Below are positions 15,001 through 21,000 of a stretch of DNA of 45,459 nt, piece after piece; position 1 is the first letter of the stretch; every line of letters begins with the position of its first letter. The stretch comes from a virus (Duplodnaviria; Heunggongvirae; Uroviricota; Caudoviricetes), in the IMG/VR virus record IMGVR_UViG_2651869692_000003. The stretch is one strand, 5' to 3'. The position numbers were made by a program.

Positions 15001-18000
15001 CAACTACACGGCTCACCTGTGGGATATCCGGTGGCTTAGAGAACGTGCGAGGAAAACAAGGTGATTGACCAAAATCGAAGTTACGAACAAGGAAGTGTCG
15101 AGCGAGCTTTAACGTGCGCTAACTGCGGTCAGAAGCTGCATGTGCTGGAAGTTCATGTGTGTGAGCACTGCTGCGCAGAATTGATGAGCGATCCGAATAG
15201 CTCGATGCACGAGGAAGAAGACGATGGCTAAACCAGCGCGAAGACGATGTAAAAACGATGAATGTCGGGAATGGTTTCACCCTGCATTCGCCAATCAGTG
15301 GTGGTGCTCTCCAGAGTGTGGAACCAAGATAGCACTCGAACGACGAAGCAAAGAACGCGAAAAAGCGGAAAAGGCAGCAGAGAAGAAACGACGACGAGAG
15401 GAGCAGAAACAGAAAGATAAACTTAAGATTCGAAAACTCGCCTTAAAGCCCCGCAGTTACTGGATTAAACAAGCCCAACAAGCCGTAAACGCCTTCATCA
15501 GAGAAAGAGACCGCGACTTACCATGTATCTCGTGCGGAACGCTCACGTCTGCTCAGTGGGATGCCGGGCATTACCGGACAACTGCTGCGGCGCCTCAACT
15601 CCGATTTGATGAACGCAATATTCACAAGCAATGCGTGGTGTGCAACCAGCACAAAAGCGGAAATCTCGTTCCGTATCGCGTCGAACTGATTAGCCGCATC
15701 GGGCAGGAAGCAGTAGAGGAAATCGAATCAAACCATAACCGCTATCGCTGGACTGTCGAAGAGTGCAGGGCCATCAAGGCGGAGTATCAACAGAAACTTA
15801 AAAAACTGCGAAACAGCAGAAGTGAGGTTGCATGAATATCTACGAAAGAATTGATGGCAGCAAATACCGAAATATTTGGGTAGTTGGCGATCTGCACGGA
15901 TGCTACACGAACCTGATGAAAAAACTGGAGACGATAGGATTCGACACCAAAAAAGACCTGCTTATCTCGGTGGGCGATTTGGTTGATCGCGGTACAGAGA
16001 ACGTAGAATGCCTGGAATTAATCACATTCCCCTGGTTCAGAGCTGTACGTGGAAACCATGAGCAAATGATGATTGATGGCTTATCAGAGCGTGGAAACGT
16101 CAATCACTGGCTGCTTAATGGCGGTGGCTGGTTCTTTAATCTCGATTACGACAAAGAAATTCTGGCTAAAGCTCTTGCCCATAAAGCAGATGAACTTCCG
16201 TTAATCATCGAACTGGTGAGTAAAGGAAAAAAATATGTCATCTGCCACGCCGATTATCCTTGTGATAAATACGAGTTTGGAAAGCCAGTTGATCATCAGC
16301 AGGTAATCTGGAACCGCGAACGAATCAGCAACTCACAAGACGGGATCGTGAAAGAAATCAAAGGCGCGGACACGTTCATCTTTGGTCATACGCCAGCAGT
16401 GAAACCACTCAAATTTGCCAACCAGATGTATATCGATACTGGCGCAGTGTTCTGCGGAAACCTCACATTGATTCAGGTACAGGGAGAAGGCGCATGAGAC
16501 TCGAAAGCATAGCTAAATTTCATTCGCCAAAAAGCCCGATGATGAGCGACTCACCACGGGCCACGGCTTCTGACTCTCTTTCCGGTACTGATGTGATGGC
16601 TGCTATGGGGATGGCGCAATCACAAGCCGGATTCGGAATGGCTGTATTCTGTGGTAAGCACGAACTCAGCCAGAACGACAAACAAAAGGCTATCAACTAT
16701 CTGATGCAATTTGCACACAAGGTATCGGGGAAATACCGTGGCGTGGCAAAGCTTGAAGGAAATACTAAGGCAAAGGTACTGCAAGTGCTCGCAACATTCG
16801 CTTATGCGGATTATTGCCGTAGTGCCGCTACGCCGGGCGCAAGATGCCGAGATTGCCACGGTACAGGCCGTGCGGTTGATATAGCCAAAACAGAGCAGTG
16901 GGGGATAGTTGCTGAGAAAGAGTGCGGAAGATGTAAAGGCGTCGGTTATTCAAGAATGCCAGCAAGCGCCGCATATCGCGCTGTGACGATGCTAATCCCA
17001 AACCTTACCCAACCCACCTGGTCACGCACTGTTAAGCCGCTGTATGACGCTCTGGTTGTGCAATGCCACAAGGAAGAGTCAATCGCAGACAACATTTTGA
17101 ATGCGATCACACGTTAGCGCCATGATTGCCACGGATGGCAACATATTAACGGCATAATATTGACTTTTTGAATAACTTTGGGGAAACTTGACACCAATAA
17201 TGGGCGTTTTTTACATGTCATTGATGAGTCTCAATAACCTGCCGCCGAGTAGTTTTTATGCTCTGAATTGTATTTGTGTAGTAAACATGCTGACTGCAAT
17301 GTAATAGAGTTTTTTTAGCCTGTAACCTCTTGACGGCATTGAATTGCTTTTGTTATGAGTTGTAAGCCAATGTTATCATCTTGTATTGGGGTGGTTATGA
17401 AGGATGGTGCACTGCTCAGGAGTTCTTCACTTTTTATTGCCTACATGGGATGCCTTGGATGGGGGAGTGCTTATTTCTATGGATGGGGTACTTCTTTTTA
17501 CTACGGCTTCCCATGGTGGATTGTAGGTGCAGGTGTTGATGATGTTGCCAGAAGTTTATTTTTTGCAGTTATCGTCATTGCTATATTTCTTATCGGTTGG
17601 GGTATTGGTGTTGTATTCTTTTTCGCAGTGAAAAGAAAACATTCTATGCAAGAGCTAAATGTATTTCGCCTTTATTTTGCTGTGGAATTATTGTTTGTGC
17701 CGGCAATTATTGAGTTTTCTATATTGAGACAGAAGATTCAGGTACCTCTTTTGCTACTGTCAGCAGCGATTGCGCTGGCGGTTACAATTTCGATAAGATC
17801 TTATGGGCGATTTTTATCGGTATCATGCTTCTATGATAAGCCATTTATAAAAAAACATTTTTTTGAGATTGTGATGATTGCTTTTGTGGCATATTTCTGG
17901 CTTTTTTCATTTCTGACAGGATATTACAAACCGCAGTTTAAGAAAGAATATGAAATGATTAATTATAATGATGGTTGGTATTATGTTCTTGCTCGTTATG

Positions 18001-21000
18001 ATAATTGTCTGGTTTTGTCTACTTCTTTTAATGCAGGTAGTAAAAGGTTTGTCATTTATCAATCAGCACAAGATAAGAATCTTCAGGTTGATATTGTAAG
18101 GACCAGAATTTAATTGGCTGCATAAATAATATTTTAAGTTGCAAGTTGGCTATTCGTAGGAATAGAACCTTAGGCATGCTGAATGCGTTTTCTGAACATT
18201 GTTTTATAAACTGTGTCTGCTTGCTGTTGTGATCCTGCTTTTAGTGATGGTGATGATGGATTTCACCAGCAGGATAATGTTGGTACTGACTGATGGCGCT
18301 CTGGTCTGCGGCATTGTGGTATTGCTGTGGCCGATGATGAAAGAACAGAATGAATAATTCTTGACTTTTTTGTTTACTGTTTATTAAAAAAACAACCGCA
18401 TGGTGAATCCTCCTTGGAGGGGCTAAATGATCGAGTTTTAAGGGCACGTAGCGAGTTCTGTTTGATCATTGCAGAACTTAGCGGGAGGCGCCATGCGTAC
18501 ATCACTAATGTTATTTCCTTCTATCATTTTCCTTGTGAGTTCTGGCTGCGCATGGCGCGGCCTTTTTTTTATGACCTGCCACTGGCAGATGGTCATCCTG
18601 TGATTTGATTCCGGTTCCGGCTTTTTAACTCTGTTCCTGTACACGGGAGAAATTCTATGTCGATTAATCGTTATGATATTGGTTACAAGAAGTACCACGT
18701 ATTGTGTTGAGATAGAAAGCCTGGTGCCAGAGGTAAATGCAGCAGCATAATAAAAAAGAGCCAGCGCAGAAGAGAACGGGTAAAAGAGTCTGCGCTGGCG
18801 TGGGGATATTCCCCGTGGAGAAATGATATGTAACACACATCGGGAACCTTTCTATATAAACATTATCATTATTGTCAATCATAACAGTCAGGTATTATGA
18901 CGTTTATGCATCAGGGCCATCAGGAATTAACTGGTGGCTTTTTATTGTTGTCAGCTTCCGGATAACGGGAGACGGGGTATGTACCAGATGGAAAAAATAA
19001 CAACAGGTGTGTCATACACCACGTCAGCGGTGGGGACGGGATACTGGCTACTGCAGTTGCTGGACAAAGTCTCCCCATCCCAGTGGGTGGCAATAGGCGT
19101 ATTGGGTAGCCTGGTGTTTGGCTTGCTGACGTATCTGACAAACCTTTATTTCAAGATTAAAGAAGATAAGCGTAAGGCTGCGAGAGGTGAATAATGTCGC
19201 CATCATTACGCAAGGCTGTTGCTGCTGCTATTGGTGGTGGGGCTGTTGCCATAGCGTCTGTGCTCATCACTGGTCCGAGTGGTGACGATGGCCTGGAAGG
19301 TGTCAGCTACATACCATACGAAGATATCGTTGGCGTATGGACTGTATGTCACGGACACACCGGAAAAGACATCATTCCCGGTAAAACGTATACCGAAGCA
19401 GAATGCAAAGCCCTCCTGAATAAAGACCTTGCCATGGTCGCCAGACAAATTAACCCGTACATCAAAGTCGATATACCGGAAACAACGCGCGGCGCTCTTT
19501 ACTCGGTTGTTTACAACGTGGGCGCTGGTAATTTCAGAACATCGACGCTTCTTCGCAAAATAAACCAGGGTGATATCAAAGGCGCATGTGACCAGCTACG
19601 TCGCTGGACATACGCTGGCGGTAAGCAATGGAAAGGCCTGATGACTCGTCGTGAGATTGAGCGTGAAGTCTGTTTGTGGGGGCAGCAATGAGCAGAGTAA
19701 CCGCGATTATCTCCGCTCTGATTATCTGCATCATCGTCTGCCTGTCATGGGCTGTTAATCATTACCGTGATAACGCCATCGCCTACAAAGAGCAGCGCGA
19801 CAAAAACGCCAGAGAGCTGAAGCAGGCGACCGCCACCATTACTGACATGCAGCAGCGCCAGCGTGCTGCTGATGTACTCGATGCTAAATACACGAAGGAG
19901 TTAGCCAATGCGAAAGCTGAAAATGATGCTCTTCGGCGTAAGCTTGATAATGGTGGTCGGGTGCTCGTCAAAGGAAAATGCCCTGTGCCAGCCTCAGCCA
20001 AAACCTCCAGCTCCTCCGGCATGGGCAATGAGGCCACCGTCGAACTCTCTTCAGTTGCTGGACGAAACGTTCTCGGTATCCGGGACGGAATTATCCGTGA
20101 CCAAACAGCACTGAGAACGCTTCAGGAGTACATCAGGACGCAATGCCTGAAATAAATTTTTTTGCAAATCACAAAGTCAATTTAATGAGCCTCGCGATGC
20201 GGGGCTTTTTTATGTCCGCAGTAAACGCGCATCTCACGCGCATATTAACGAGAGCCTTTCAGTAAGCGAGCCTGAGAAATGCCGTTATAGGTGGCGACCT
20301 CTCTCGGGCGGCTTTTCTGTGAGACAGGCTCACTTTCTAAAAGGTAAAGACGCTATGAATAATCATTCAGTTATTCCAGCCTTCGACTTCCGAGAAATGG
20401 TGCAAGCCAAAAACGGAGAGGTCGTTACCACATCCAGAAAAATTGCCAAGTACTTCGGCAAGCGACACGGTGATGTTCTCAGGAAAATCGAGCAGGTTAA
20501 GGCTGATTGCTCGCGTGAGTTTAGCCAACGCAATTTTGCGTCGGCTGATTATATCGATGAGCAGGGCAAGGTTCGCCCGATGTACAGCCTGACGAAAGAT
20601 GGCTGGATCATGGTTGTGATGGGGTTCACCGGGAAAGCTGCTGCGGCAATCAAGGAGAGCTATATCGCAGCATTCAACTGGATGGCAGAGCAACTGAGCC
20701 GCCGCATGGCAATTGGCGAAGAAATGCAGCACCGCTACGCCATCAAAGAAACACGCTCAAAGCTGAAAGGTACGATCGGCAGTCGGTTAATGAACGAACG
20801 GAAGAGAGAGAAGCGTGTCCTGGCTGTCGAGCATGAATACATTTTGCAGGTGACACAGCCTGAACTGCTGATTAATTGAAGATGTCATTACAAAGCCTAT
20901 CTACGGGTGGGCTTGATAATGGCTTATACCCTGCACGGGATAACTTAACTGATATCCCTTTTAACGGATAAAGGTATTCAGGCCAGACACATCATGCGCT

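Follow-up and report, generated by a model that had tools for sequence, protein, structure and literature searches.

What is the gene that occupies the space between the late antiterminator gene Q and the holin gene of a lambdoid phage, when is it expressed and whom does it serve? This question is raised by the virus record IMGVR_UViG_2651869692_000003 (Caudoviricetes), whose 45,459 nucleotides are called the window here. The window is a lambdoid prophage or phage in which about 1.85 kb of AT-rich DNA separates Q from the lysis cassette, and a mechanical call of open reading frames (ORFs) places in this DNA a plus-strand ORF, 17355..18113, that counts 252 amino acids (aa) from its first ATG. 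A sequence-only reading had described its product as an unknown polytopic membrane protein, possibly made in lysogens from the constitutive transcript of the late promoter pR' and serving exclusion, abortive infection or conversion. The best explanation, to which a probability of about one half can be given, is that this cargo gene, which follows Q/pR' and precedes the lysis cassette, is a lysogenic-conversion 'moron' whose product works on the periplasmic side of the inner membrane and benefits the host. Its composition, its presence/absence polymorphism and its dispensability are the hallmarks of morons in the sense of Hendrix and colleagues.

The ORF is not a chance ORF, since it has 103 homologues (39–100% identity, E values down to 1e-157; the identical one, P0001, is tagged PF27470) and more distant ones at 12–30% identity that retain the same architecture, namely about 235–250 aa with an N-terminal AYxYGWG...G.P motif, four to five transmembrane (TM) helices and a C-terminal beta domain with YY.L...L.L, as also found in the window. 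It matches PHROG 1521, of unknown function, at an E value of 1.7e-154. Among 1.84 billion proteins the family comprises 70 representatives at the 50%-identity level, and profile searches recover its distant members full-length. All homologues listed but a few distant ones carry the precomputed tag PF27470 "TfpB". In NCBIfam and a local Pfam collection lacking the PF27470 model no meaningful match was found; DUF4501 (E 0.23) and CrgA (E 0.39) fell well short of their cut-offs. The protein is thus already catalogued as PF27470, PHROG 1521 and WP_001302581.1; 'unknown' was the right word for the function and not for the entity. Literature on the name TfpB yielded unrelated uses only (e.g., the PilB-like TfpB of Acinetobacter), and no homologue found bears it; the tfpB ORF of the Moraxella pilin-inversion region is a possible source.

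The gene itself can be given as follows:

17397..18113, plus strand: cargo gene for a 238-aa predicted inner-membrane protein of the PF27470 (TfpB)/PHROG 1521/STM1630 family, placed from its homologues, the start alignment and the structural model

Although the 252-aa ORF exists as described, the true start of the gene is most likely the ATG at 17397, which gives 238 aa, because every full-length homologue starts at a Met aligned with this position and a GAGG-type ribosome-binding site 8–11 nt before it is kept in five unrelated contexts. These are the window, an elt plasmid of enterotoxigenic Escherichia coli (ETEC), an iro island of extraintestinal pathogenic E. coli (ExPEC), a P0019-type prophage and the Citrobacter rodentium chromosome. 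The essentially identical proteins CPT_434_68 of coliphage 434 and WP_001302581.1 of O157:H7 and other E. coli prophages are annotated from a start 9 codons further upstream (247 aa).

Both the composition of the DNA and its comparison with related phages set the cargo apart from its surroundings. The G+C content is 36.1% in the cargo ORF and 38% in the spacer between Q and the ORF, against 50.8% in Q and 50.1% in the whole window, so that the AT-richness claimed for the ORF is borne out, as is its position between a lambda-type Q and a holin. The two flanking genes are:

16494..17117, plus strand: Q, lambda-type late antiterminator of 207 aa (full-length PF03589, E 4e-58)
18979..19194, plus strand: pinholin, a class II holin of P21 type, with which the lysis cassette opens (PF04971, E 2e-32, and PGAP annotation of identical loci)

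The DNA of Q is about 96% identical to that of HK446, mEpX2, Sf101 and others, and the homology to lambda-Q phages (HK97, HK542, the mEp series and Sf101) spans Q and stops at about 17204. The insert is missing from HK542, HK97, mEp and Sf101-type lambda-Q phages, and HK542 passes from pR' directly to the holin. Cargo in the slot between Q and the holin gene S is familiar from lambdoid phages, which carry there stx (Shiga toxin, Stx, phages), LT-II, nanS-p or lpxR, and lambda itself has the morons bor and lom. Such toxin and conversion cargo shares with the gene of the window its AT-rich location between late-control and lysis genes, its dispensability for plaque formation and its potential supply from both pR' and a promoter of its own. 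However, the products of the known cargo are secreted toxins, outer-membrane proteins or enzymes, unlike the inner-membrane protein predicted here.

The near-identical module is found in phages 434 and 2B8, with 98.7% DNA identity over the gene, the adjoining DUF3927 gene and the small-RNA candidate described below. Among 5,426 complete E. coli genomes, 682 carry it, O157:H7 and O26 among them, always with the annotation 'hypothetical protein', and so do at least 181 IMG/VR contigs; the query region occurs in a median of 2 and a maximum of 10 places per E. coli genome, many of which are pR'-only matches. Moreover, 434B, a plaque-forming derivative of 434, has its whole Q-to-lysis region swapped for DLP12 sequence, and the annotated non-homology spans the cargo gene. 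The gene is consequently dispensable for lytic growth, as 434B forms plaques without it.

Outside this module the family extends over Enterobacterales (E. coli, Shigella, E. albertii, Salmonella, Citrobacter, Klebsiella, Enterobacter, Cronobacter, Yersinia and Mangrovibacter), Pasteurellaceae (Haemophilus ducreyi, Aggregatibacter, Actinobacillus, Mannheimia, Pasteurella, Avibacterium, Gallibacterium, Glaesserella and Rodentibacter) and Neisseriaceae (Neisseria, Conchiformibius and Uruburuella), and its surroundings are often those of virulence genes. A 59%-identical member lies divergently about 870 bp from eltAB, which encodes the heat-labile toxin LT, in insertion-sequence-rich ETEC contigs that also carry STb (L007-L010, 2987..5714), and this copy may be what is left of a late region of a prophage that surrounded the LT genes. 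In ExPEC the member stands between iroB, of the salmochelin locus, and a bor/iss homologue, and in Salmonella enterica subspecies enterica, diarizonae and arizonae it adjoins sseJ. In Glaesserella parasuis it is directly followed by three convergent ORFs, 176, 277 and 226 aa long, that are taken for the operon of the cytolethal distending toxin, cdtCBA (L021, 5974..9017); the adjacent 176-aa one was scanned and matches CDtoxinA. The gene of the lipid A deacylase, lpxR, recurs in three arrangements: in Stx-phage-like late regions the member is convergent with lpxR, beside a PmrD-like gene and a NanS-p-type esterase (L113-L115, 4001..5919); in the C. rodentium chromosome it is divergent from a disrupted lpxR (L011, 3863..5717); and in the 434 and O157 prophages (L001/L003) ylcG-Q stands between lpxR and the family member, with lpxR just upstream of Q. 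These arrangements could indicate either a functional link to lipid A remodelling or merely a shared insertion hot spot. In Mangrovibacter the neighbour is a resolvase, and in Pasteurellaceae and Neisseriaceae the member is a lone gene between housekeeping genes (rpoH/mqo, ftsK, tsaB, mdh, dld, purF). Orthologues occupy one fixed chromosomal site in the three S. enterica subspecies and in C. rodentium. An analysis of conserved neighbours at 19 loci found no partner gene kept across genera, and the cargo gene moves as a single-gene unit among the prophages, plasmids and chromosomes of animal-associated Proteobacteria.

The relative that says most about a possible benefit to the host is found in Salmonella. 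The Salmonella homologue P0075 corresponds to STM1630 (SL1344_1560), as indicated by the gene length of 717 bp, the adjacency to sseJ and a knock-out primer that encodes its N-terminus, NSSMLLAYLGGLGWG. STM1630 resembles the cargo gene in its 238 aa, its N-terminal motif, its architecture and its 46% identity, as well as in being AT-rich, horizontally acquired DNA with its own promoter that adjoins virulence cargo (sseJ). In contrast to the gene of the window, it lies outside a prophage with no Q or pR' upstream, has a long 5' leader, H-NS silencing and induction of the type of Salmonella pathogenicity island 2 (SPI-2), and its upstream DNA is unrelated to that of the window. The function of STM1630 is described as unknown; its product is expressed in SPI-2-inducing medium and in macrophages, the gene is bound by H-NS, and its promoter has been mapped experimentally (PMC6785131 Text S1). 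According to the same source, STM1630 is silenced in sequence type ST313 through two single-nucleotide polymorphisms in its -10 box and is dispensable for growth in lysogeny broth (LB), its deletion in strain 4/74 raises intramacrophage replication, and signature-tagged mutants are cited as attenuated in calves and chickens (PMC6785131 Text S1). It is also listed among SPI-2 co-regulated genes (PMC2639726).

Where the protein would act is suggested by its predicted structure. The claim that it spans the membrane several times agrees with both topology analysis and modelling: the hydropathy plot shows four segments of strong hydrophobicity and, at the N-terminus, a weaker one rich in aromatic residues and glycine, and an AlphaFold model built on a 47-sequence alignment shows five long helices followed by a five-stranded beta domain, with a mean predicted local distance difference test score (pLDDT) of 83 and a predicted template modelling score (pTM) of 0.77. 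A first run with 37 close homologues had reached a pLDDT of 59.7, which rose to 83 once distant members were added. Loops 2 and 4 are rich in K/R, while loop 1 is acidic and free of K/R; because of this distribution the positive-inside analysis predicts an inner-membrane protein with the N-terminus inside, five TM helices and a periplasmic C-terminal domain. This domain, of about 55 aa, would be a small SH3-like beta-barrel in the periplasm. The best-conserved stretch of the protein is the aromatic/glycine-rich AYxYGWG...YYGFPWW...ARSL, which takes in the last part of helix 1 and the first part of helix 2 and would lie, according to the model, at the periplasmic end of TM1/TM2.

The near-invariant residues of the family are A, G, Y and F only, which makes an enzyme unlikely and favours a binding or structural role; no polar residue of the catalytic type is conserved across the family alignment. 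As far as the model can guide, the protein most likely binds a partner on the periplasmic side of the inner membrane and does not act as a catalyst. Foldseek searches against BFVD and the Protein Data Bank (PDB) gave nothing below an E value of 1e-3, with weak SH3-like and MscS-like rows only, and a sequence-profile search of the PDB gave 0 matches, so that the profile and structure searches proposed at the outset found no solved fold.

The expression of the gene appears to depend firstly on an element of its own, which is the following:

17330..17359, plus strand: candidate own promoter (TTGACG, 17–18 nt, TGtTATGAG), recognized as a conserved block

This block, TTGAC[GT]-N17-TTTGT[TA]ATG, lies about 60 nt before the ATG and at equal distance in the five contexts compared, while the DNA further upstream is unrelated. 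In its -35 element TTGA is invariant; TTGAC[GT] is present in four of the five contexts and TTGATT in C. rodentium. A promoter scan picks instead TTGTTA-18-TATCAT with an upstream TG, at 17350..17379. A CII-binding site annotated in 434 (TTGT-N6-TTGT, window 17350..17363) was considered and rejected, as its second half-site is lost in the other contexts and so loose a pattern is at chance level.

Secondly, the gene lies downstream of a late promoter whose terminator has decayed:

17160..17206, plus strand: pR'-like late promoter with qut, aligned with HK542, whose promoter and qut are annotated
17237..17257, plus strand: degraded remnant of a tR'-type terminator, ACCTGCCGCCGAGTAG + T5, homologous to the intact hairpin of phage 434 and O157 prophages

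The function of 17160..17206 as pR'/qut would follow from its homology to lambda pR'/qut. Its -35 element TTGACT (17160..17165) and its -10 element GAAACT (17183..17188) are separated by a 17-nt spacer that holds the Q-binding region, and a -10-like pause element AATAAT at 17196..17201 is followed by GGG, where HK542 has AACGAT+GG. The alignment with HK542 confirms the variant -10 that had been noticed at first sight, as related lambda-Q phages such as HK542 read TAAATT and two positions differ. Among 50 lambda-Q loci with the module the variant is the rule, with GAAACT in 47, TAAATT in 2 and TAAGTT in 1. The intact counterpart of the hairpin, ACCCGCTGCCGAGTGGG + T8, stands directly upstream of the module in phage 434, where it is an annotated terminator, and in O157:H7 prophages; its folding energy is -10.5 kcal/mol, against -1.5 kcal/mol in the window. 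Of the 50 lambda-Q loci, 46 share exactly this degraded hairpin, and in the remaining 4 it is altered further and not intact either. Two lambda-Q loci (L078 and L088) combine the canonical -10 TAAATT and the pause element AACAAT with such a further-altered hairpin, which makes the change of the -10 and the decay of the terminator separable events.

A terminator scan of 17118..17397 gave no terminator-like site, and the degraded tR' hairpin was not called either, in agreement with the earlier claim that no convincing terminator precedes the gene; the first strong terminators past pR' lie about 1.35 kb and 1.7 kb downstream. Since no credible terminator stands between pR' and the ATG, unmodified pR' transcripts should enter the cargo gene and, to judge from the layout, should cover it together with DUF3927 and the small-RNA candidate, ending at 18570 or 18946. 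The 206-nt leader RNA folds no more stably than shuffled sequence (z -0.23) and gives no hint of a structured riboregulator.

It does not follow that the gene depends on pR'. The same module stands behind a lambda-type Q here and behind a Q82-type Q in phage 434 and the O157:H7 prophages, where the tR' hairpin is intact, unlike in the window with its variant pR' and decayed hairpin. This occurrence behind an intact terminator, together with the conserved promoter-like block, indicates that the cargo gene is independent of pR'. Inclusion in the constitutive pR' transcript and expression in lysogens, as the sequence-only reading proposed, are hence plausible for the window but are probably not what the gene relies on.

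The DNA between the cargo gene and the holin holds further elements on the plus strand:

18199..18357, plus strand: DUF3927/TciB-like small membrane protein of 52 aa with a TTG start (PF13064, E 3.4e-14; PHROG 1470)
18372..18570, plus strand: candidate STnc100/PasD-family small RNA (Rfam RF02076) ending in the terminator 18544..18570
18544..18570, plus strand: strong intrinsic terminator from the terminator scan, hairpin -15.2 kcal/mol
18915..18946, plus strand: second intrinsic terminator just upstream of the holin, 11-bp stem and T run, -15.8 kcal/mol

The small RNA is a candidate only, as the RF02076 match over 18372..18526 scores 38.9 bits (E 4.3e-6), below the gathering score of 47. PasD has been placed next to Q, LpxR and a holin/lysozyme operon in prophages of enteropathogenic and enterohaemorrhagic E. 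coli (EPEC/EHEC) (Zhu, Shabalina, Storz; bioRxiv 10.64898/2026.05.13.724894), and the candidate, lying beside Q and the lysis genes, agrees with this placement. The strong terminator at 18544..18570 is where it had been reported, although it most likely belongs to this STnc100/PasD-type small RNA, and it is separated from the cargo gene by DUF3927 and the small-RNA candidate. With tR' decayed, the small RNA could also arise as the 3' end of a pR' transcript.

The DUF3927 ORF is annotated TciB in phage 434; its association with the cargo gene is confined to the near-identical module and does not extend to the more distant contexts. The name TciB stems from a phage P1 annotation ('tellurite or colicin resistance / inhibition of cell division') and is a transferred label that seems never to have been tested; the literature on tciA/B/C bears only on this P1-derived label. 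On the minus strand, 18750..18839 weakly matches Esr41, an EHEC small RNA (RF02676, E 0.002), scoring 32 bits where the gathering score is 102; it lies opposite the late operon and its 3' end resembles a terminator, and a 111-nt stretch there is 100% conserved in the O157 locus L003. A 132-aa minus-strand ORF at 18438..18836, which PGAP calls a 'hypothetical protein' in identical loci (WP_012578864/WP_033816266), is probably a false gene call, since it has no PHROG match and overlaps both small-RNA candidates and the terminator. Past the second terminator, the lysis cassette continues from the pinholin to the endolysin and then Rz; the pinholin carries the dual-start motif MYQM (Met1/Met4; 18979..18990, plus strand), typical of S21-type holin/antiholin pairs.

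Taken as a conversion moron, the cargo gene would be transcribed in lysogens from its own promoter-like element at 17330..17359. In the lambda-Q arrangement, the decay of the tR' hairpin would add transcription by read-through from the constitutive pR', and the terminators at 18544 and 18915 would then keep the lysis genes shielded until Q acts. It would be the lysogen in its animal host that benefits, through its envelope or host-interaction physiology, rather than phage growth, if the relatives are a guide.

The main rival is superinfection exclusion or abortive infection, in which the protein made by the lysogen blocks the entry of incoming phage DNA or kills the infected cell, as SieA, Imm and gp15 exemplify; we consider this unlikely, though a real competitor. 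The moron position in a prophage behind a constitutive promoter without a terminator suits such a role, as do the predicted polytopic inner-membrane protein with a periplasmic domain, the occurrence in many prophages per genome and the frequency in IMG/VR prophage contigs. P22 SieA, T4 Imm and HK97 gp15 are likewise phage or prophage inner-membrane proteins made before superinfection, an analogy that is functional only, for they have no sequence, profile or fold similarity to the cargo protein, whose family moreover persists outside phages. Orthologues that have settled stably away from prophages, at fixed sites in chromosomes and amid housekeeping genes, speak against exclusion, and the Salmonella member is induced by intracellular/SPI-2 conditions and not constitutive. 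None of the 5,027 models of PADLOC-DB 2.0 matched the membrane protein, the DUF3927 protein or a 64-aa ORF at E ≤ 1. None of these points is decisive. Of the roles suggested at the outset conversion fits best, while exclusion and abortive infection received no positive support from the PADLOC search, the non-prophage sites or STM1630.

Less likely still, and in our view improbable, is that the cargo is an orphan immunity or tolerance protein against a competitor's membrane-targeting toxin, i.e., a pore-forming colicin or bacteriocin, or an effector of contact-dependent inhibition (CDI) or of a type VI secretion system (T6SS). A small polytopic inner-membrane protein without catalytic residues, standing alone and horizontally mobile in bacteria of toxin-rich mucosal surfaces, would fit such a role, and the only name of the DUF3927 neighbour, 'TciB-like', alludes to colicin tolerance. 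However, that label was carried over from P1 and the linkage to DUF3927 is restricted to the near-identical module, no toxin gene or toxin–immunity array lies nearby in the contexts examined, and classical immunity proteins against pore-formers are smaller than a 238-aa protein with a periplasmic beta domain. An accessory lysis or late function, e.g., modulating holin timing or the membrane at lysis and expressed only with Q, is very improbable despite the membrane nature of the product and its place in the late operon, on the same strand immediately upstream of the lysis cassette, because 434B forms plaques with the DLP12 replacement, closely related lambda-Q phages lack the gene, family members lie on plasmids and chromosomes far from lysis genes, and Pfam and PHROG scans gave no holin, antiholin or spanin family match.

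Several points weigh against the conversion moron itself. The empty PADLOC search, taken on its own, leaves room for a new exclusion function. The benefit to the host is transferred by analogy from a 46%-identical Salmonella relative with mild phenotypes and no growth defect; its effect on motility comes from a screen, some effects of which the authors of a follow-up attribute to possible polar effects. Closeness to virulence genes may merely mirror shared insertion hot spots in prophage remnants. Moreover, expression in lysogens could be low, since the -10 of the own-promoter candidate matches the consensus poorly and pR' may be weak on account of the G with which its -10 begins, and AT-rich DNA of this kind is typically silenced by H-NS. 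Finally, the topology is a prediction in which the hydrophobicity of TM1 is weak.

A wider proposal, which we regard as speculative and rather doubtful, is that the PF27470/STM1630 family forms a new class of single-gene envelope effectors that engage a conserved envelope component, with the short pR' transcript turned into a 1.4-kb lysogen mRNA. The aromatic/glycine-rich periplasmic face and the SH3-like domain would do the engaging, and the protein would either keep foreign DNA or toxins out or remodel the envelope as the bacterium colonises its host, being spread by phages, plasmids and islets over Enterobacterales, Pasteurellaceae and Neisseriaceae. After the loss of tR', the 1.4-kb mRNA would span the cargo protein, the DUF3927 peptide and an Hfq-type small RNA.

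As to what is new, the gene, the family and the module were already catalogued, and the conversion moron is an ordinary one and not a new kind of system. The present analysis corrects the start, predicts topology and fold, shows how widely and in which contexts the family occurs, connects it with STM1630, and brings out both the conserved promoter-like block and the decay of the tR' hairpin, which is specific to the lambda-Q arrangement. Since the gene is carried by the classical phage 434 and by about one in eight complete E. coli genomes, a defined function would account for a very common prophage cargo of pathogens, as well as for the reported attenuation of Salmonella STM1630 mutants in vivo. 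The decayed tR', for its part, would be a small and testable case of a constitutive late promoter turned into a device for expression in lysogens, following the same logic as the pR' transcripts of Stx phages.

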